This document shows positions 51,643 through 61,988 of a stretch of DNA of 64,000 bases, one piece after another. The notes beneath the pieces were generated by a model. The model was not told the origin of the DNA, did not search any database, and was given only the letters and a program-made list of their open reading frames with translations. The DNA comes from Myxococcota bacterium (GTDB lineage: Bacteria; Myxococcota_A; UBA9160; UBA6930). How positions within the stretch are numbered: position 1 is the first letter of the stretch; every line of letters begins with the position of its first letter. Both the position numbers and the translations under genes were made by a program. The stretch spans positions 2,720,001 through 2,784,000 of the forward strand of contig OZ245002.1 of assembly GCA_965223415.1 (NCBI GenBank), given 5' to 3'.

Positions 51643-53301
51643 CTTCCCGTCCAAGAACTCGTAAGTCACTGAGAAGAAAAGGAATTGGCGCAAACGCGCC
51701 TCCCGATCGAGTTGCGATTGGTGTATGTTAGGTGGTGCCAACCTACCGAACATACACAGCAATTCGCCAACCGGGGGGTGAAGCGATGCGCCAATTCCGA
51801 GAAACTCAGCTCTCACTCACGCCCACATGGGGTCCGCATCAACATACCCGAGAGCTGCAGATGATCGCCAGGATCCTCGGGGCGGATCCGCGCTTGGGTG
51901 CTGTTGTGCACGGAGATCTGATCGGGGAACGTCGCGCCGATACCGGCCGTCGGGGCCTCAGCGGCGATCAGGTCCTTCGAATCGCCCTACTCAAGCAGAT
52001 CCACGGGCTGAGCTACCGGGAGTTGGAGTTTCACCTCCAGGACTCGGCCGCCTTCCGCAGCTTCGTAGGACTCGGGCTTGGTGACTGGCCCCGCTTCCAG
52101 ACCCTTCAGGACAACGTCAAACGGATCCGGCCCGAGACGTGGGAAGCCATCCACCGTGCGTTGATCGGCCTGGCTCGCCGGGAAGGAATCGAACGAGGCG
52201 AGACGATTCGGGCGGATACGACGGTCGTCGAGGCGAACATCCACGAGCCCGCCGACTCGGCCCTGCTCTGGGACAGCGTTCGGGTGATGACGCGGATTTT
52301 GCGAAGGATGGCGAAGCAACGCCCTTCGCTGCGCAAGATGTTCCCGGATCGTCGTCGTTGCGTGAAGCGACGCGCCTACGCGATCAAGTTCCACCGGCGG
52401 TCGATCAACCTGGTCGCGAGCTATCGGTGCATGATCCGGGCCACGGAAGAGGTCTGCCAAGCGGCCCGTAGCGTCGCGGAGAGGGTCGCCCGAGTCGAAG
52501 ACACGACGCCGCTTCGCGAAGAGCTCCTCGCGGTGCTTCCCCTCGTCGAGCGCGTCATCGATCAGAGCCGTCGCCGTGTCCTCGAAGGCGAGCGCGTCCC
52601 TGCAGCCGAGAAGATCGTGTCGATCTTCGAGCCGCACTCGGACATCCTCGTGAAGGACAATCGAGGCACCTACTACGGTCACAAGGTCTGTCTGACTGGC
52701 GGCAGGTCGTCACTCGTCCTCGACTGTGTCATCGAGGAAGGAAACCCTACGGACTCGACGCTGGTCGAACGTACGCTCGAGCGCCATGCAGATCTCTTCG
52801 GCAAGGCACCCCGCCAAGTGGCGATGGACGGAGGCTTCGCGTCCATGGACAACGTTGCCAAGGCCAAGGCGCTCGGCGTGGAAGACATGGCCTTCAACAA
52901 GAAGAGCGGACTCGAGGTCCACGAGATGGTGCGCAGCGCCTGGGTCTTCCGGCGCCTTCGTGACTTCCGCTCGGGGATCGAGGGCGTGATCTCGACGCTC
53001 AAGCGAGCGTTCCAGATGGACCGATGCACCTGGCGGGGCCTGGCGTCCTTCAAGGCCTATGTCTGGGCCAGTGTGACGAGCTTCAACCTCGTCGCCTTGG
53101 CCCGCCACCTGCTGACTCGCGAGTTCGCCTGAACCCCTGAGAGTGGTTCGGTCGGTGGACACGTGCGCCCGCGCATCGGAACACGGTCGCTCACTCACCC
53201 CGACGGCTCCGGGACTGCTGTGACATCGCTACTCTCAACGCCCGCGAAGACCGCCAACGATCCACTAAGAGGCCGACGAACGGCTCTTCTCGGACGGGAA
53301 G
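51643..53301 (+). mobile_element. ISNCY/IS5-like insertion sequence
   Basis: 15-bp IRs CTTCCCGTCC(A/G)AGAA (14/15); 6-bp TAGTTA duplication at 51637-51642 and 53302-53307. Confidence 0.9.
51786..53132 (+). CDS. DDE transposase (ISNCY-like)
   Basis: RADTTVVEANIHEPADSALL, KIVSIFEPH, AMDGGF, FRSGIEGVIS. Confidence 0.9.
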   Translation: MRQFRETQLSLTPTWGPHQHTRELQMIARILGADPRLGAVVHGDLIGERRADTGRRGLSGDQVLRIALLKQIHGLSYRELEFHLQDSAAFRSFVGLGLGDWPRFQTLQDNVKRIRPETWEAIHRALIGLARREGIERGETIRADTTVVEANIHEPADSALLWDSVRVMTRILRRMAKQRPSLRKMFPDRRRCVKRRAYAIKFHRRSINLVASYRCMIRATEEVCQAARSVAERVARVEDTTPLREELLAVLPLVERVIDQSRRRVLEGERVPAAEKIVSIFEPHSDILVKDNRGTYYGHKVCLTGGRSSLVLDCVIEEGNPTDSTLVERTLERHADLFGKAPRQVAMDGGFASMDNVAKAKALGVEDMAFNKKSGLEVHEMVRSAWVFRRLRDFRSGIEGVISTLKRAFQMDRCTWRGLASFKAYVWASVTSFNLVALARHLLTREFA

Positions 53302-53318
53302 TAGTTAGGCGTCGCGAC

Positions 53319-53672
53319 ATGGAAACTAAGCCCAGGCGGTCTCTGGCGTCGCAGCTTCGCTCATCTGTCGAGCGGCTCGCGGCGCGTGGCGTCGAGCAAG
53401 TCGCCTGGGTCGAGCGCCAGGGCGTCCACGCTGATGAGCTGGCTCTAGACTTCTCGGACGCAGTGCTCCCCGCGGTAGTCAATCTCTCCAACGAGTTCAC
53501 GCCGGAGTTGCTCCTGCGACTAGAGCTCCTCGACGATCAGCTCTCGTCAATGTCGGGCACAGCCAAGGCTAGATTATGGACCAGCGCTTCAATCCTCAAC
53601 GACCCAGCCTGGGGGCGGGTGCGCACCCTGGCACAAGTTGCGCTCGATGCGCCCGGCTGGCCGCCGCTGTAG
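53319..53672 (+). CDS. Gene cassette 1: hypothetical protein
   Basis: ORF between GTTAGGC (53304) and GCCTAAC (53683). Confidence 0.75.
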   Translation: METKPRRSLASQLRSSVERLAARGVEQVAWVERQGVHADELALDFSDAVLPAVVNLSNEFTPELLLRLELLDDQLSSMSGTAKARLWTSASILNDPAWGRVRTLAQVALDAPGWPPL

Positions 53673-53682
53673 TGTGCGCGGC

Positions 53683-53811
53683 GCCTAACAAGCGGCTGCA
53701 GCTGACGGCTCCAAGCACCCTTCAAACGGCCATGGTAGCCTGGGGTTGTTCCTTGGCCGGTTCAGCGGGCGTCGGGGCCGTCGCCGCAGCTGAGCCGCCG
53801 GTCCGTTAGGC
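53683..53811 (+). other. Integron attC site 1 (129 bp, intact)
   Basis: R'' GCCTAAC ... R' GTTAGGC; inner arms GCGGCTGCAGCTG / CAGCTGAGCCGC. Confidence 0.9.
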
Positions 53812-53818
53812 GGCTGGA

Positions 53819-54298
53819 ATGCGACCGCTCGGCAGACTTCTGGCGCTTGTTCTCCTCTCTGCCTGCAGCGAGTCGCCGGCCGAGAAGGTGCTTTCGCGAG
53901 TGGAAGAGAGCGGCCCGCAAGCAGTGATCGCTCAGCTCTTTCAGTCGGACACCGAGTGGACGGAGCTGAGTCGAAACATCGAGTCTGGCGACGACGCGTG
54001 GCTTCGCGTTGCGGCAAGCTTGCGCCCGGGTAGCGATGCGGGTTCAGCACTCAGTCTGATCTACTCGGTCGCACGTGCGATCCCGGCAAATCCCCACGGA
54101 GTTCTCTCGCTCGCGAAGGAAGGCCACTTCTCGATCGAGCTGATCTGCACGTCTCCGTTCATTGAGCCGGAGCCGGGAATCGCCGAGAGGTTCGCGGAGA
54201 AGGCATCGGAAGCCCTCTCGACCGTGCAGGACCCCCACCTCCTTCAGGTACGCGACGAATGCGTCACAAGAGTTCAACTGCCCCAGCCAGCCGCCTAA
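53819..54298 (+). CDS. Gene cassette 2: lipoprotein
   Basis: Lipobox LSAC; stop codon TAA lies inside the R'' GCCTAAC. Confidence 0.82.
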   Translation: MRPLGRLLALVLLSACSESPAEKVLSRVEESGPQAVIAQLFQSDTEWTELSRNIESGDDAWLRVAASLRPGSDAGSALSLIYSVARAIPANPHGVLSLAKEGHFSIELICTSPFIEPEPGIAERFAEKASEALSTVQDPHLLQVRDECVTRVQLPQPAA

Positions 54299-54317
54299 CC
54301 AGCGGCTGCAGCTGACC
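54293..54317 (+). other. attC site 2, left part (split by the IS1111-type element)
   Basis: GCCTAACCAGCGGCTGCAGCTGACC, nearly identical to the attC1 start. Confidence 0.88.
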
Positions 54318-54563
54318 CGTTTAGGGAGTGTCAACTCCAATGATCGCGAAGCACGTGTGGGTCTTGGTGGTGTCCTCCAACGGAATCGGCTTGCGTCCCT
54401 GCGGGTTCGGGTTCAGTCCAAACGCGTTGTCGGCCTCGTGGGCTCAATGAGGGGTTCGGGGCGACGGTGGTGAATCGGGGCCAAGGGCTCATGGGCCGCA
54501 GTCAGCTGCCCGCCTACCGTCTTCGTTGGAACACAAGCGAGAAGGGGTCCTGGGGGAGCGGGG

Positions 54564-55164
54564 CTACGCCATGCCAAGGCACCTCCGGAGATCGAAGGCC
54601 TCGCCGCGGGTGAGCGTGACCCAGACGCTGACGAGGAGTCTGCGAGCCAAGGCCATGCGGACCTTGTTCTTGTGGACGCGGGTCCGCATCGTCTTCGCCC
54701 AGGCACGAACCAACGGGTCGTCCTTCATCAGGCGAACCGCCCATTGGCTGACGATCCAGCGGAGCTCGGCCTGGCCTTGGCGGGTCATGCGGCCGTGGTG
54801 GGCGTGGTCGGCTGACTGGTTCACCTTGGGGGTGAAGCCGGCGAAGGCCGAGACCGCACGGGGGCCTCGGAATCGGTGCGGGTCGCCGATCTCGGCGAGC
54901 AGCGTGGCAGCCGATTGCGTCCCGATGCTCGGGAGCTCCTGCTCGAGGGCCTGGACGTCGGGATCCTCTCGCCCGATCCGTCGGATCTCCCGATCGAGAG
55001 CCAGCACCTGGCCCTGCAGGCTATCGAGCACCTGGAGCAGGGCCTTGAAGGCGGTCTGCATCTCCAGGGTCGGCAGGGTGACGGTGCGGAGCTTCTCCCG
55101 GCTCGGCTTGGTATAGAGCGCGCTCGTGGGAGCGGGAATCCGGTAGGCGTTCAGGAAGCCCCGG
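54564..55164 (-). pseudogene. IS110-family transposase, C-terminal fragment
   Basis: LPSIG..SAATLLAEIGD..RF, AFAGFTP..NQSA; joins in frame to the N-terminal fragment (NQLRG|FLNAY). Confidence 0.88.
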
Positions 55165-55299
55165 TGTCGAGGGACGTCATCTCTTGCGCGCTAAGAGGAC
55201 GGCTAGTTTTGCGCACCCCCCTGGGTTGATGTTCGGTTCTTCCTTCTTCTCTTCCGCTCTCCGAAGGAGAGCACGGCCGTCAGGCCGCCCTCTGGGGCC

Positions 55300-56100
55300 T
55301 CAACGCTGGGCGCTTTGCCCCGCGGCCTGCTCGAGCTCGCGGAGCCGGTAGCTCCGCCCCGAGATGTTGAGCACCTGGCTGTGGTGGAGGAGGCGATCGA
55401 GGATGGCGGTGGCCAGCACCTCGTCGCCCGCCAGCACCTCGGGCCAGTCGGCGATGCCCTTGTTCGTGGTGATCAGGATCGAGCCCCTCCCATAGCGGTA
55501 GGAGACGAGCCGGAAGAAGAGGCTCGCCTCCTGGCGCGTCATGGGCTCGAAGCCGACCTCGTCGATGACGAGGAGCGCCACGTTCATGTGCTTGCGCCGC
55601 CGCAGCCGTTGCGGGCTGATCTCGGCGTCGCGCTTGAGGGCCGCCAGCAGGTCCTCGAGGCGATGGAAGGCCACGGAGAAGCCGTTCTCCACGGCCCGCA
55701 CCCCCAGGGCCACCGCCAGGTGGGTCTTGCCCACTCCCGGCGGACCCTGGATCAGCAGACTCTCCTTGGCCCGGATCCACGCGCAGGTGCCCAGCGTCTC
55801 GATCCGGCTCCGCTCCACACTCGGCTGGAAGGCGAAGTCGAAGTTGCCGAGGGTCTGCCCCGTGGGAAGGCCCGAGAGACGGAGCGAGGTCTTCATCCTC
55901 CGCTCCTCGCGGTGCTGCAGCTCGGCCTCGAGCAGCAGGTCGAGGAAGCGGTGGGGCACGAGGTCGTCCTTGGTCGCTCGGGCCAGCTCCTCGCCGATGT
56001 GCTCGGCCGCGTGATGGAGGCCGAGGCGCACGAGCCGCTCGCGGGTCGGGTCGAGATCCACCTTGCCGCCCTTCTTGGGCACCGGGTTTCCCGCCGTCAT
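55300..56100 (-). CDS. istB: IS21 helper ATPase
   Basis: FDFAFQP, GPPGVGKTHL, LVIDEVG, AILDRLLHH. Confidence 0.94.
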   Translation of the reverse strand: MTAGNPVPKKGGKVDLDPTRERLVRLGLHHAAEHIGEELARATKDDLVPHRFLDLLLEAELQHREERRMKTSLRLSGLPTGQTLGNFDFAFQPSVERSRIETLGTCAWIRAKESLLIQGPPGVGKTHLAVALGVRAVENGFSVAFHRLEDLLAALKRDAEISPQRLRRRKHMNVALLVIDEVGFEPMTRQEASLFFRLVSYRYGRGSILITTNKGIADWPEVLAGDEVLATAILDRLLHHSQVLNISGRSYRLRELEQAAGQSAQR

Positions 56101-57383
56101 CGCGCCACCTCCGCCAGATCGGCATAGAGGTCGATCGGCCGCTGCTCCGGCTCCATCGCCCACAGCTCCTGGAGGCGTCGACCCATGCGCCCGAGCGGTA
56201 CGGGCGCCTCCACCCCCTCCGTGCTCGGCCCCTCGTAGTGGCTCGGGTCCAGCAGCAGGCGGCTTCGCGTGTGGCGCGGGTGCGCGGCCACCACCGAGCC
56301 CTCGGCCCAGACCTGCACCTGCCGGGCGCAGCCGCGCACCTCGACGCTCTGCTCGACGAAGCGGAAGGGGACGCTGTAGGTACGCCCCTCGAAGCGCACC
56401 GTGGCGTCGCGCCCGACACGTCGCATCACGGCCAGGTCGAAGGGCTCGGGAAGCCGCTCGGGCAGGGCCCCGAGATGGGGCTTCTCCGCCTCCCACGCCT
56501 GGAAGACCGTCGTGCCCGTCGCCGGGCACTGCCGCCGGTGGCTCGAGCGCGCCACCTGGCCGTCCGTCCACGCTTGCAGCGACTCCAGGCTCTCGTGCTC
56601 CCGCCGACGCGGATCGAAGCCCCGCCGGTGCCCCAGGATCCGACGCTCCACCTTCCCCTTCTCCTGCGGCTGGCGGGGACGGGTGGCGTCCACGTGGAAG
56701 CGAAGGGCCCCGGCATAGCTCGCGTAAGCCGGGTTCACCGTCCCCCATGGCCCCGCCCCCTTCGCCACCGCTGTCTTCACGTTGTCGACCCGCAGCACCG
56801 CCGGCACCCCGCCCAGCCGCTCGAAGGCCCGGTTGTGCACGTCCAGCCACGCCAGCGTGTCCGCCCGCTCCGACCACACCACCGCTTCTCGCCGCGAGTG
56901 CGAGAGCACCAGGTGGAAGGCATGCAGGTCCACCTCCTGGCCCCCGATCCGCACGCCCGGAAACTCGCCCCAGTCCACCTGACCCTGCGCCCCGGGCGGT
57001 GTCTCCACCCGACGCCGGCTCCGCACCTTCGGTCTCGGGAACCGGGCCCGCACGTACCGCTGCACGCTCTTGGAGCTCCCCGTGTACCCGTGCTCCTCCA
57101 CCAGGAACTCGTGAAGCTCCTGCAGGTTCACGCCACGGCCTCCCGAGCTCGCCTCCAGCCACTCCGCGATCACCTCGTGGACCGCCTCGGCCAGGAAGGG
57201 CTTCCCGCTCCGGCCGTCTCGCGCCCCCTCCGCCAGCCGCTTCAGCCGGTAGCGCACCGCGCTCTCCCGGATCCCCAGCTGGCGGGCGATCTCCCGGTTC
57301 GAGCACCCCCGCTCGTGCAGCACTTCGATCGTCATCACTTCCTCCTGCCTCAGTCGCCGCTGCCCCACGCCCCCCTCCCTCAC
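56097..57383 (-). CDS. istA: IS21 transposase
   Basis: HTH, ETPPGAQGQVDWG, VDNVKTAV, EKGKVER, YSVP. Confidence 0.94.
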   Translation of the reverse strand: MREGGVGQRRLRQEEVMTIEVLHERGCSNREIARQLGIRESAVRYRLKRLAEGARDGRSGKPFLAEAVHEVIAEWLEASSGGRGVNLQELHEFLVEEHGYTGSSKSVQRYVRARFPRPKVRSRRRVETPPGAQGQVDWGEFPGVRIGGQEVDLHAFHLVLSHSRREAVVWSERADTLAWLDVHNRAFERLGGVPAVLRVDNVKTAVAKGAGPWGTVNPAYASYAGALRFHVDATRPRQPQEKGKVERRILGHRRGFDPRRREHESLESLQAWTDGQVARSSHRRQCPATGTTVFQAWEAEKPHLGALPERLPEPFDLAVMRRVGRDATVRFEGRTYSVPFRFVEQSVEVRGCARQVQVWAEGSVVAAHPRHTRSRLLLDPSHYEGPSTEGVEAPVPLGRMGRRLQELWAMEPEQRPIDLYADLAEVAR

Positions 57384-57466
57384 GGGGAACGTGCCGCGCA
57401 GCGGCTCAACAGGAGGTGCGCAAATCTACGTGTCCTCTTAGCCCTCGAATATCACGTCCTGCGACA

Positions 57467-57921
57467 CCCCGGAGCTGGTTCACGGCCTGTTGGCGCATCT
57501 GGACGAGGCGGTGGCGGACCCGAAGGAGCTTCCTCCTCCCGTACTCCTCGTCGCTCGGGTAGTAGGTCGTTGCCACCCGATCCAGATCACCGAGCCAGAG
57601 CCGGCGTGCAATCTCGGCTGCATCTCGCCGGTCCGTCTTCTTGCCGAGCTTCTTCAGGTCGAGCTTGCGCGGATCACAGACCAGAACGTCGAGCTGCGCC
57701 TCTCGGCAGGCGTTGACGAACCACCGGTTGAGGCCCAACGCCTCGACGGCTACGCGGCAATGGGGTCCGAAGAACTTCAGCCGCTCCACGACCCCGAGGC
57801 CCTGTTCAAGGCTCTCGGAGCGGATCCTCTCCTCGGCGATCTTCTCACCCCGCGCATCCAGCACGCAGATCTGGATCACGGTGCGATGCAAGTCGATCCC
57901 AGCGAAGTACTCTGTCGTCAT
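57467..57921 (-). pseudogene. IS110-family transposase, N-terminal DEDD fragment
   Basis: AGIDLH, VAVEA, KTDRRDA. Confidence 0.88.
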
Positions 57922-57999
57922 GGTCAGTCTCCTTGGGGAGTGTTTGTTGGAACACAGCCAAGGTGGCTGTTCTCCAAGGAGCTGACCTCCCTATACCCT

Positions 58000-58103
58000 C
58001 CGGGCCCCGCTCGTCCCAATCGAGGCATGATACCCTGGGGTTCCACTCAGGTGGCTCGGCGAGCCTCGGGGCCGGCCCGGCAGCTGAGCCGCCAGTCCGT
58101 TAG
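58000..58103 (+). other. attC site 2, right part (R' hit by the IS110 element)
   Basis: ...CAGCTGAGCCGCCAGTCCGTTAG; removing both IS110 elements gives 129 bp, the same length as attC1. Confidence 0.88.
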
Positions 58104-58118
58104 ATACTCCCTTCGTCG

Positions 58119-59114
58119 TCAACCCTTCGTGGCGAAGAATTTCTCGCCAAGGAAGTCCTGGTCGTGGCGGAGCATGCCGTAGATGGCGTGGAGCAGCTTC
58201 CGCATGACGGCGACGAGTGCTTGCATCTTGGTTTTGCCCTTGGAGAGCAGCTTCTCGTAGAAGGCCTTCACGTTCGGTTCCCAGCGTGCAGCGACCATCG
58301 CAGGAAGAAAGAGTGCGCGGCGAAGGTGGGCGTTGCCGGTCTTGCTGATGCGAGCTGGCTTGTGCACAGAGGTGCCCGATTGAAACTGTCGGGGGTCGAG
58401 GCCCGCATGCGCGACCCATTGCCGGGTCGTCATGTCCTTGGGCAAGGTGCCTAGCTCGGCGAGCAACTGGATGCCGGCTGCGTCGGCGATACCCTTGATC
58501 GATGTGATGTGGCCGAAGTCTCTGGCGAGCTCGGGGCTCTGCTCGATCACCTTCAACGCTTGCTTGCGCAGCCGATCGATTCGCCCCTCCAGGAGCTCGA
58601 TCAGTTCGCGGATGTCTTGCTTCACGAACTCACTGAGCTCCTCGCTCTGGTCGTTGGCATGGAGCCGGTTCTTCTCCTGCGTCACGGTCTTGCTCAGAGC
58701 CTCCACGCGGCGGGAGAGGGCCCGTACCTCCAGAATTCGGGGGTCCGGCGGAGTCCAGGCGGAAAACTCCATGCGCATTCCGAACTCGAGAATCGTTTCC
58801 GCATCGAGCGCATCCGTCTTGGAGCGTTGAAGCGATGCCTTGGCGAACGCGGCAATGGCCCGCGGGTTCGCCACCATCACCTGGGACGCCTTCGCACGGT
58901 GAAGCGCGAACGCGAGGTCGAGGCCGTACACCCCGGTCGATTCCAGGACGACGCGCGCCGTCGCATTCCCCTTCGTGGCCCACCGAATCAGCCTCTGGTG
59001 GCCCTTGGGATCGTTCGCAAAGACCAGCCCGCCCTCGCGAGTTCCGTTCCGGTCGATGGCGACGACGAGCTCCTTCGCCCCGACGTCCACGCCCACGTAA
59101 TGACACTTCTTCAA
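58119..59114 (-). CDS. IS110-family bridge recombinase
   Basis: GVDVG, VLESTG, KTDALDA (DEDD), AHAGLDP..FQSGTS, ISKTGN..LR; GGAGG RBS and TTG start. Confidence 0.93.
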   Translation of the reverse strand: MKKCHYVGVDVGAKELVVAIDRNGTREGGLVFANDPKGHQRLIRWATKGNATARVVLESTGVYGLDLAFALHRAKASQVMVANPRAIAAFAKASLQRSKTDALDAETILEFGMRMEFSAWTPPDPRILEVRALSRRVEALSKTVTQEKNRLHANDQSEELSEFVKQDIRELIELLEGRIDRLRKQALKVIEQSPELARDFGHITSIKGIADAAGIQLLAELGTLPKDMTTRQWVAHAGLDPRQFQSGTSVHKPARISKTGNAHLRRALFLPAMVAARWEPNVKAFYEKLLSKGKTKMQALVAVMRKLLHAIYGMLRHDQDFLGEKFFATKG

Positions 59115-59149
59115 GGTCTCTCCTCCCCGTGATAAGCTGGGACCCGGGT

Positions 59150-59340
59150 CTCCCGACCCTGCACATTCACCTACGGACCTTGTAGACGCAGGCTCTCGGG
59201 CCTCGGATACTCCACGGCATGGGTGACGAGGGCGGGAGGCCCATCTAACGGACAAGCTCTCTGGCTTCAGGCAGCGACGGCCTTTCCCGGGAACCCATCT
59301 CGGAGTCTCACTCAGGCCCGAAGAGCCTGCTCAGAGGTAC
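59150..59340 (-). ncRNA. Predicted bridge RNA (ends approximate)
   Basis: Guides matching target and donor flanks at 59269-59277, 59245-59253, 59206-59213 and 59179-59184; each pair separated by a small hairpin. Confidence 0.82.
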
Positions 59341-59343
59341 AAG

Positions 59344-59461
59344 GCGGCGCCCTGCGAACGGCGAGACTCGACCACTTGATCGCGCTTGTCTGTCTTGTCG
59401 CAGTCAGCTTTGGCTGCGTGAACCCAAGCTCCTCATCACGAATTCGCATCTTCGTGAGCGA
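59344..59461 (+). pseudogene. Gene cassette 3 remnant (lipoprotein-like N-terminus) truncated by IS21
   Basis: LIALVCLVAVSFGC lipobox-like stretch; frame runs into the IS end. Confidence 0.5.
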
Positions 59462-59541
59462 CCCTCGGTGGACGTCTGAAAACCGGCCAAAGGTGGACGT
59501 CTCAAAGGCGGCCAAAGGGCCGCGCCCAGGACAGAGGGGTT

Positions 59542-60303
59542 CTACCGCGCCGGAGCCTCCTTCGGCAAGGCCGTGGTCTTCTTGGTGCGCCAGCTGCGGG
59601 GTCCGCACTTGAGCAGGTGGCCGTGGTGGAGGAGGCGGTCGAGCATGGCGGTGACGGCTGCCGTGTCGCCGAGGAGCCGGCCCCAGTCGTCGACGGGTCG
59701 GTTCGAGGTGACGAGGGTGCTGGTGCGCTCGTAGCGGCGCATGATGAGCTCGAGCAGGTCCTCGGCGGCCGTGGTGGGGAGCTTGCGCATGCCGAGGTCG
59801 TCAAGGATGAGCAGCGGCACGCTCGCCATCTCGGCCAGGTACTCCTTGCGGGTGCCGTCGAGGGTCGCATCAGCGAGTTCCTCGAGGAGGACGTGGACCT
59901 CGCGGTAGGCGACGCGATGGCCCTGGTGGATGACGGCGAGGCCGATCGCCTGGGCGAGATGGCTCTTGCCCGTGCCCGGCGGGCCGAGGAAGACAGCGTC
60001 CTCGGCTTGCTCGAGGAAGCGGCCCGTGGCGAGCTCGAAGACCAGGGCGCGATCGATCTTCGTATTGAAGCGGAAGTCGAAGCCGTTGAGGGTCCGGTTG
60101 GCGTCGCGGAAGCGGGCCTGCTTGATGCGCCGGGCCAGCAGTCGGTCCTGCCGGCGCTCGAGCTCGTCCTGGACGAGCGCCGAGAGCAGGTCGATGGCCG
60201 CCCACTCGCCCTTCTGGGCTTCGAGGAGCCGCATCTCCAGATGCTCGGCCATGCCCGAGAGCCGGAGCTTGCGCAGTGCGGGATCGAGTTCAGTCAGATT
60301 CAC
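59542..60303 (-). CDS. istB: IS21 helper ATPase
   Basis: FDFRFN, GPPGTGKSHL, LILDDLG, AMLDRLLHH. Confidence 0.93.
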   Translation of the reverse strand: MNLTELDPALRKLRLSGMAEHLEMRLLEAQKGEWAAIDLLSALVQDELERRQDRLLARRIKQARFRDANRTLNGFDFRFNTKIDRALVFELATGRFLEQAEDAVFLGPPGTGKSHLAQAIGLAVIHQGHRVAYREVHVLLEELADATLDGTRKEYLAEMASVPLLILDDLGMRKLPTTAAEDLLELIMRRYERTSTLVTSNRPVDDWGRLLGDTAAVTAMLDRLLHHGHLLKCGPRSWRTKKTTALPKEAPAR

Positions 60304-61879
60304 GAGAGGTCTCCTCGGTGCGGCGATCGATGAGATCGCGGTAGTGGGTGAGCTGGCGGATGAGCGGGTCCACCTGCTTGAGCGAGAGCGGCAGCTCGGG
60401 CTGACGCTCCAGGTAGCGCTTGACGAACGCGTAGGTGGGCAGCTCGAGGGCCAGGGCGGTGGCGCAGGCATCGTCGACGCGAGGGATGCCGTGGCGCTTG
60501 CACAGGGAGAGCACGCCCAGGATGCGACGCACCCCGGGCTCGCCGTCCAGGCGATGGATCGCCTCACACACCTCGCCCACGTGGACGCCGGCGCGCCGGG
60601 CCCGCGCGAGCAGCTGGAGGGTCGTGGCCGGCGTCCGCTTCGGGCGGTCCTCCTCCCGCATCCTGCGGCGCCCCCGCCTCTGGCGGACGTGCTCGCGCAG
60701 CAGCTCCCCCGTCTGCAGATCGAGCATCCGCACCCGCAGCCCGTCCCATTGGACGGCCACCCGCCGCCCCAGCCAGCCCGGCGGCGCGTGGTAGTAGGCC
60801 CCCTCCACCTCGATGGCCCCGTCGAGGTGCACCGTGCGCTCGCCGTGCTGGTAGTAGCGGAAGGGCTCGATGGGAAGCCCGAGCAGGTGCGGCTTCTCCT
60901 CTTCGTACATCGCCGCCACCTGGCGCTTGGTCGTGCCGTGGATGCGGGTGTCGGCCCATCGGCGCTCCCAGCGGTCGAGGTAGGCCTGGGCCTGCTCGAG
61001 CGACTCGAAGCGCATCCCGCGGACCTTCTGCTGCGCGTGGCGCACCCCGGACTCGACCTTCCCCTTGCGATCGGGGTGGCGCACCCGGCACGGAAGCGCC
61101 GTCACGCCGTAGTGGGCGAGCACATCGCGGTAGAGGGGGTTGAGCGCGGGGTCGTAGACGTCGGGCTTGAGAACGCCCTCCTTGAGGTTGTCGAGGACGA
61201 CGGTGCGCGGTGCACCGCCCAGCCGGCGGAAGGCCTTCTCGTGCAGCTCCGACCAGACCTGGCTGCTCGACTTCCACACGAGCAGCCGAACGCACTTGCG
61301 GCTGTAGCCCAGGGTGAAGACGAACAGCCTCGTGCGCCGGTACTTCCCCGACCCGGGATGCCGCACCATCGGCCCGTCGCCGTAGTCGACCTGGCCCTCT
61401 TCTCCCGGTGCCGTCTCGATCACCGGGTGCGCCTCGCGCGGCGCCGCGGCTCGCTGCTTCGCCACGAAGCGCTTCACACTCGCATAGCTGAAGGCGAAGC
61501 CGTGGTCATCGACTAGGTCCTGCCAGATCGCCATCGCCGTCCGGCCCTGGCGCACGCCCGCCTCGATCCACTCGCGGTAGGGCTCGCAGGCGCTGGCCTG
61601 GGGGCTCCGGCCCGGCATCGGCGGCCAGGCCGGATCGGTGGACGCCTCTTTGGCCGCTTTTGCCGGGGCCTTCGAGTCGGTGGACGCCTCTATGGCCGGG
61701 TTTGGGGCCCCGTGCCCCCAGCGACCAGGAGATCGCACCGCGATCCCCGCGGCCCGGAGGTAACGGCTCGCCGTCTCCCGGCGCACGCCCGTCGCCTCCT
61801 CGATCCGCCGAAGCGACCAGCCGAGGCGGCCAAGTGCCAGAATCTGCTCGCGTTTCTCGTTGCCCAGAAGGTTCGCCAT
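60290..61879 (-). CDS. istA: IS21 transposase
   Basis: ETAPGEEGQVDYG, LDNLKEGV, RKGKVESGV, RIHGTT. Confidence 0.93.
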   Translation of the reverse strand: MANLLGNEKREQILALGRLGWSLRRIEEATGVRRETASRYLRAAGIAVRSPGRWGHGAPNPAIEASTDSKAPAKAAKEASTDPAWPPMPGRSPQASACEPYREWIEAGVRQGRTAMAIWQDLVDDHGFAFSYASVKRFVAKQRAAAPREAHPVIETAPGEEGQVDYGDGPMVRHPGSGKYRRTRLFVFTLGYSRKCVRLLVWKSSSQVWSELHEKAFRRLGGAPRTVVLDNLKEGVLKPDVYDPALNPLYRDVLAHYGVTALPCRVRHPDRKGKVESGVRHAQQKVRGMRFESLEQAQAYLDRWERRWADTRIHGTTKRQVAAMYEEEKPHLLGLPIEPFRYYQHGERTVHLDGAIEVEGAYYHAPPGWLGRRVAVQWDGLRVRMLDLQTGELLREHVRQRRGRRRMREEDRPKRTPATTLQLLARARRAGVHVGEVCEAIHRLDGEPGVRRILGVLSLCKRHGIPRVDDACATALALELPTYAFVKRYLERQPELPLSLKQVDPLIRQLTHYRDLIDRRTEETSRESD

Positions 61880-61988
61880 GGCGGCGGGGGATCGCAGGTC
61901 CCTCGCCGTCGTCAACGTCCTGGGCGTCAGCCCCTATGGCCGCTTTTCAGACGTCCTTCTATGGCCGGTTTTGGGTGTCCACCGAGGG

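Follow-up and report, generated by a model that had tools for sequence, protein, structure and literature searches.

The element inserted in the R' box of an integron attC site in the window, the 64,000-nt stretch of DNA analysed here as a whole, is very probably an active bridge recombinase of the IS110 group. It resembles IS621 and ISCro4, and would belong to a broad clade whose target-loop guides appear to be held on the core site of attC, that is, R' (GTTRRRY) and the spacer adjacent to it.

The boundaries of the element are exact, with AG at 58102-58103 and again at 59342-59343, GTCCGTT preceding the one and GCGGC trailing the other. A BLAST search of the host genome returned six 1242-nt copies at 100% identity with differing flanks, which fixes the ends independently and points to recent movement. 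The dinucleotide core flanks the element on both sides with no target duplication beyond it, the left non-coding end extends 229 nt upstream of the gene and the right end measures 17 nt, and inspection of the ends revealed no long sub-terminal inverted repeats. The initial annotation had described an intact IS110 element with a CT core whose excision restores GTCCGTT-AG-GCGGC. These proposals all stand: the boundaries, the identical copies and the presence of all five catalytic residues bear out the first, CT is found at both element ends and is upheld across the clade of relatives, and the restored junction is identical to the empty attC1 end at 53801-53814.

Table 1. Positions in the window of the IS110-group element, its parts and the neighbouring attC sites.
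Feature	Positions	Strand	Remarks
Empty attC1, 129 nt	53683..53811	+	Unoccupied near-perfect target; bottom-strand hairpin, -34.2 kcal/mol as DNA
R'' and L'' of attC2 (left half)	54293..54315	+	Cut off from right half by other IS elements
IS1111-type element beside L'' of attC2	54315..58000 (approximate ends)	-	Interrupted by IS21 (~55165-57466)
L' and R' of attC2	58080..58105	+	R' after insertion GTTAGAT, still GTTRRRY
Whole IS110-group element, both CT cores included	58102..59343	-	1242 nt, 6 identical genome copies
Short right end with -35-like TTGAC hexamer 13 nt before core	58102..58122	-	Candidate half of circle-junction promoter; spacing kept in 90/93 relatives
DEDD recombinase, 331 aa, TTG start	58119..59114	-	PF01548, PF02371; NF033542 above cut-off
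Predicted bridge RNA in long left non-coding end	59115..59343	-	Layout as in IS621 left end
Right donor guide (RDG) TACAAG	59179..59184	-	6/6; then donor-loop handshake position GT, 59177-59178
Donor-loop inner hairpin	59190-59203	-	Motif location
Left donor guide (LDG) GGAGTATC	59206..59213	-	8/8 to element's right end
Target-loop handshake guide AT	59243..59244	-	Same letters as IS621 A81/U82; putative role, by homology
Right target guide (RTG) CCGTTAG, 7 nt	59245..59251	-	Covariation with targets
Target-binding loop inner hairpin	59254..59267	-	Helix 2: compensatory changes in 3/4 pairs
Left target guide (LTG) TCGCTGCCT	59269..59277	-	Core-proximal 7 nt covary with targets

Among the relatives, a TTGAC hexamer lies 13 nt ahead of the core in 90 of 93 right ends, a fixed spacing that is expected for a circle-junction promoter. 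The -10 in the window element is weak, and scanning the linear element for sigma-70 promoters gave no complete one. No circle joint is seen in the assembled contigs, which are silent on circles since assemblies drop rare variants.

The 331-aa recombinase, 36% identical to IS621, aligns with residues matching D11, E60, D102, D105 and S241 of IS621 at every position; the roles of these catalytic residues are described in PMC11208158. By sequence ISCro4 (E 4e-49) and IS621 (E 2e-46) are its sole solved relatives, and the catalytic positions line up with theirs; across 47 relatives D11, E59, D102 and S247 are invariant and D105 is at least 90% conserved.

A motif search located every guide and hairpin motif of the predicted bridge RNA where the initial annotation had placed it, and the order of the parts and the handshake letters agree with the IS621 left end. 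We aligned 27 of 32 non-redundant non-coding ends together with that of the window element, the five excluded having mis-parsed or longer boundaries, and RNAalifold returned two stems, each opening into a large internal loop that a 4-bp hairpin closes, with all four guides unpaired. Compensatory changes occur in 13 of the 29 pairs, a number reached in 0 of 500 shuffles and set against 0-5 pairs in slid controls. Folding of the left end and alignment of its homologs, the check that had been proposed for the RNA, thus recover a conserved structure with two internal loops; folded as a single sequence, the left end is unremarkable (z -1.28).

The match between guide and target is restricted to five bases on either side of the core. 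The initial annotation had assigned a 9-nt RTG, GTCCGTTAG (59245-59253), matching its target at 9/9, of which the motif and its core-proximal match were borne out and the length was not: the leading GT matches targets in 21% and 26% of 87 relatives, as opposed to 78-100% for the next five bases. As this GT does not covary, the RTG measures 7 nt with the core counted, and chance accounts for part of the 9/9 match. The same GT was considered as a handshake guide and rejected, IS621 numbering putting the handshake 3' of the RTG; the target-loop handshake reads AT in 99 of 102 relatives. Positions 1 and 2 of the LTG are weak (26% and 48% target match), and its single proximal mismatch to GCCGC could be a U:G wobble. 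The donor guides match the circle junction and vary little among relatives; in the tally of the donor-loop handshake, the RDG of one sub-clade is parsed one base off.

Matches to the non-coding end occurred in 33 of 225 same-class genomes, counting that of the window, and the relative loci (L001-L139) also take in the best 80 of 515 from a metagenome scan. Leaving out the six own-genome loci and any locus with no transposase match, less than 48% identity or less than 120 nt upstream, we parsed 112 relatives (104 unique rows, the metagenome part again being the best 80 of 515), with the left end of L056 reassigned by hand. The non-core match was 4.95/7 for the LTG compared with 3.67 when permuted (n=86) and 5.14/7 compared with 3.89 for the RTG (n=87); with one row per distinct guide, the values were 4.76 and 3.03 for the LTG (n=37) and 4.81 and 2.85 for the RTG (n=26). 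In each of these four guide-target tests the observed match was reached by 0 of 10,000 permutations, a significance that kinship among the relatives overstates. Covariation between guides and flanks, the lack of which had been named at the outset as evidence against RNA guidance, is therefore present across the 104 unique relatives. Individual guide-target switches are plain, and the initial base of the core tracks the guide, AT standing at the left junction in 8 of the 12 elements with an LTG ending in AT and in 0 of the 74 others. The guides likewise follow attC variants, including GTTATGC-type R' boxes and differing spacers, over 52-87% protein identity.

The flanks of these relatives are rich in attC. 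Among the relatives with long flanks, a whole attC hairpin adjoins 22 of 69 (22 of 50 when only those starting AAC are counted), compared with 8 of 400 random CTAAC sites, two of those eight being real attC; a whole or half attC lies beside 37 of 48 relatives with attC-type guides, against a control for the half-site pattern of 12 in 404. The 84 readable flanks comprise 43 attC, 6 of a different guide class and 35 others, with a further 20 rows unreadable. Of the 48 relatives with attC-type guides 11 are not classed attC, as are the 35 others among the 84 with a readable flank. Matches to the right-end pattern in five other genomes number 11 (five at a whole attC, one at a half, four elsewhere and one cut off), and in genome G447 all three matches lie in whole attC sites. 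In a 15-row sister clade at 53-55% identity the guide often has GTT, yet none of the 14 readable flanks is classed attC. One relative, inserted in a short (64 nt) attC, has an integron integrase fragment about 1 kb away (L009:2791-3195), co-directional with the cassettes.

Within the host genome, the target sites fit integron attC, having the RYYYAAC...GTTRRRY palindrome and paired L boxes; the consensus core GTTRRRY is given in PMC3053210. The same attC type occurs at genome position 2064415, in an array beside the only integrase above the TIGR02249 cut-off, and the cassette array of the window has no adjacent intI. The usual spacer between L' and R' is 6 nt. In the window and in the flanks of many relatives it is about 9 nt, and an attC scan assuming a short L'-R' spacer found nothing, a widened spacer being used instead.

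Three of the six copies lie in attC R' boxes and cover all three attC clusters of the genome. Two of the six directly adjoin a complete L'R' half-site, and the third attC copy (genome 2066076) is parted from its attC by an IS1380 element with a TTAG duplication; we counted it as an attC insertion, with IS110-first and IS1380-first orders giving the same sequence. This IS1380 element (G000:C1:2064546-2066073; L142:3159-4526) sits in R' of the first attC of the intI array, beside the IS110 copy, and is the one with a TTAG target among eight genome copies, the other seven having CTAG. Outside attC, one copy has a 9.5/10 guide match and two match at 7/10 and 4/10 in register; on our reading, both poor matches fit if a 1-nt bulge is allowed. 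The 9.5/10 copy (G000:C1:4166325-4167566) occupies the stop-codon position of a panB-like gene while keeping the TAG stop, and a panC-like gene comes next (both names taken from the translation read by eye).

The three attC clusters contain five intact L'R' halves, three occupied and two empty. At two more left halves of attC the sequence passes into a left-end relic, in one case 13 nt of the window element and in the other a diverged relative with other guides. This diverged relic (G000:C1:2528850-2529290, L141) has a different RTG, a left end at an attC-type junction and most of its transposase deleted. The guide matches lie above chance level: when CT sites were scored on the 5+5 core-proximal guide bases, only five unoccupied sites of 653,117 genome-wide reached at least 9.5/10, two of which are attC R' boxes; with occupied sites counted there are nine (five empty, four occupied), five of them attC, and 167 CT sites in the genome score at least 8.5/10. 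The proposed specialisation for cassette junctions, against which copies in unrelated sites had been said to count, is supported with a qualification. Targeting of attC R' is upheld by half of the copies and exclusivity is not, the other half lying at partial guide matches elsewhere, which makes the element guide-specific rather than attC-exclusive, with imperfect specificity.

An IS1111-type element that was absent from the initial annotation also interrupts attC2, and has in turn been interrupted by an IS21 element. It has sub-terminal inverted repeats and a longer downstream end, and in four of four genome copies it adjoins L'' and splits the site. An IS1111-type and an IS110-group element share one attC twice, in the window and at genome 2534543-2536037. 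More broadly, positions 51732-61915 of the window form a dense pile-up of insertion sequences around the cassette array, with a DDE transposase at 51732-53132 and two IS21-family elements at about 55165-57466 and 59460-61900; Pfam gives no match for either cassette ORF (53163-53672, 53819-54298).

A few of the closer relatives provide a view of guide change on the same scaffold. Those at 83-85% identity carry the RTG GTCGGATAG or close variants, and an IS1595 transposase gene adjoins five of the six changed-guide relatives with a readable right flank. The IS1595-family ends beside the right flanks of L031-L033, L035 and L036 resemble the bottom strand of attC R'-L' in sequence. A quick IQ-TREE phylogeny built from 99 rows, with IS621 as the root on a long root branch, groups the IS1595-targeting relatives with the query in a starred clade of 13 rows, which is nested inside starred clades of 23 and 50 rows where attC elements predominate. 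This nesting suggests that retargeting may have run from attC to IS1595.

It could be argued that the element is a generalist RNA-guided insertion sequence whose motif merely resembles attC ends, its attC occupancy reflecting survival in dispensable cassette arrays. In its favour are the half of the genome copies that lie outside attC, a sister clade with GTT-bearing guides and no attC flanks, and the many genome CT sites scoring at least 8.5/10. We nevertheless consider this unlikely, given insertion at the identical R' base in unrelated hosts, guides that track attC variants across the full range of protein identity, and the share of attC among the best-scoring sites. A further alternative is that targeting operates mainly via the folded attC hairpin or IntI, with the guide matches secondary; IntI recognises attC as a folded bottom strand (PMC3053210), and many IS110-family targets are palindromic. 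Copies at guide-matching sites that lack attC, together with the changed-guide relatives that adjoin IS1595 transposase genes, make this alternative very unlikely.

That the element could simply be a member of the known IS1111-attC group is extremely improbable, even with an attC target and an antisense orientation to the array in common (PMC3001079). Its long non-coding end lies upstream of the gene rather than downstream and its right end is short, its nearest solved relatives are IS621 and ISCro4, it shares 26% identity over 155 aa with the IS1111-type element in the same attC, and its insertion point is at the opposite end of attC.

For the favoured reading, guide-directed insertion into R', a recombination cycle can be proposed by homology to IS621, whose own cycle is described in PMC11208160 and PMC11208158. 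The element would be excised as a circle joined at the CT core, and the circle junction would set the right-end -35 hexamer beside the left end and drive expression of the bridge RNA. The donor loop would then bind the circle junction and the target loop would bind GCYGC-CT-AACGG on the attC bottom strand, with the top strands cut 3' of CT and exchanged. This cut position has independent support from eight rows with AT in both the left junction and the LTG and CT at the right junction where readable. Recognition would proceed via the guide sequence and not the attC hairpin, in which case partial matches elsewhere would also be struck and a few guide changes would redirect the element.

The product of insertion bears on what becomes of the invaded site. 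The array top-strand junction is GTTAGAT in 69 of 69 AAC-flank rows, which results from the donor end being AT-CT and still fits GTTRRRY, and the AAC/GTT triad is still paired in the predicted fold at 16 of 22 whole attC sites and lost at six. As insertion keeps a consensus R', the elements may change how cassettes are expressed and mobilised while the site itself survives. IntI crosses over between G and TT, which makes the element the 5' portion of the cassette that follows. It is possible, and we suggest it tentatively, that the clade is a non-destructive integron hitchhiker: the donor end would rebuild a consensus R', the invaded attC would stay recombinogenic, and IntI could excise and shuffle the element and spread it between hosts. 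In this model the element lands just downstream of the IntI crossover and could insulate the next cassette from an upstream promoter. If true, this would make the clade a third, independent class of attC invader, one that, in contrast to site-splitting elements, has the integron as its vehicle. When we looked for the element at attI beside intI, an intI match was within reach in only one relative locus (L009), where the element is at attC.

The target of IS621 lies in REP elements, and is an 11-mer other than the attC R' box addressed by the window element. In most other respects the two are alike. IS621 and ISCro4/IS622 have a DEDD+Tnp recombinase of ~330 aa, a bridge RNA in the long left end and a CT core (PMC11208160, PMC11208158, bioRxiv 10.1101/2025.05.14.653916), and they share with the window element the loop order (LTG-hairpin-RTG, LDG-hairpin-RDG), a near-identical donor junction and the same handshake letters; its natural RTG match differs from those described for IS621/ISCro4 in running 5 nt beyond the core. 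The IS621-type layout that had been claimed for this element holds across the clade of relatives, along with attC R' targeting.

The IS1111-attC group (ISKpn4, ISPst6, ISPa25, ISPa21) likewise comprises RNA-guided, attC-targeting members of the IS110 superfamily that lie antisense to the array (PMC11187229, PMC3001079). As described there, these are set apart by sub-terminal inverted repeats, a downstream guide RNA and insertion near the attC 5' end, none of which applies to the window element. In every feature that can be decided from sequence it is an IS110-group element, inserting inside R' at the 3' end and leaving R''-L''-L'-R' contiguous. Group IIC-attC introns are also mobile elements that enter the bottom strand of attC and run opposite to cassette transcription (PMC3001079), but are retroelements with an intron RNA and an intron-encoded protein, in place of a DEDD recombinase and a bispecific guide. 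Other IS110-superfamily elements target other mobile elements, as IS4321/IS5075 do with Tn21-family terminal repeats and ISEc21 with IS3-family transposase genes, and ISMch6 and ISEc21 exemplify natural redirection by few guide changes (PMC11187229); the redirected sub-clade described here differs in that its apparent move is away from attC R' and onto the ends of IS1595-family elements, a pairing for which a limited look at the literature gave no precedent.

Bridge-RNA recombination is an already published mechanism and attC targeting by IS1111 elements is likewise known. In the literature found, which includes PMC11187229 and PMC3001079, attC targeting is described only for IS1111-family elements and group IIC introns, in keeping with the expectation, introns apart, that known attC-targeting elements are of IS1111 type. 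A literature search whose scope included PMC11208160, PMC11187229, PMC12444791 and bioRxiv 10.64898/2026.08.14.744561 turned up no IS621-group lineage directed at R', ISfinder and the 2008/2009 IS1111-attC primary papers being outside its scope. The Supplementary Data of Durrant 2024 contain attC-like targets (e.g. target_seq1529, 2459, 3248, 3320) and bridge RNAs of the window element's scaffold, both unlabelled, with 0 matches to 'integron' in the searchable part, and these count against full novelty. What appears undescribed is the lineage and its landing spot, namely a lineage of IS621 type, widespread and directed at the core of attC, whose insertion is possibly non-destructive.

Its members form a natural reprogramming series on one scaffold, with targets that range over attC variants, the ends of IS1595 elements and unrelated sites, and with one target whose core begins with A. 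Such a series can serve to test guide rules and to find bridge recombinases already aimed at cassette junctions. Taken with the IS1111-attC group, the clade indicates that both branches of the IS110 superfamily have converged on integron attC, at opposite ends of the site.
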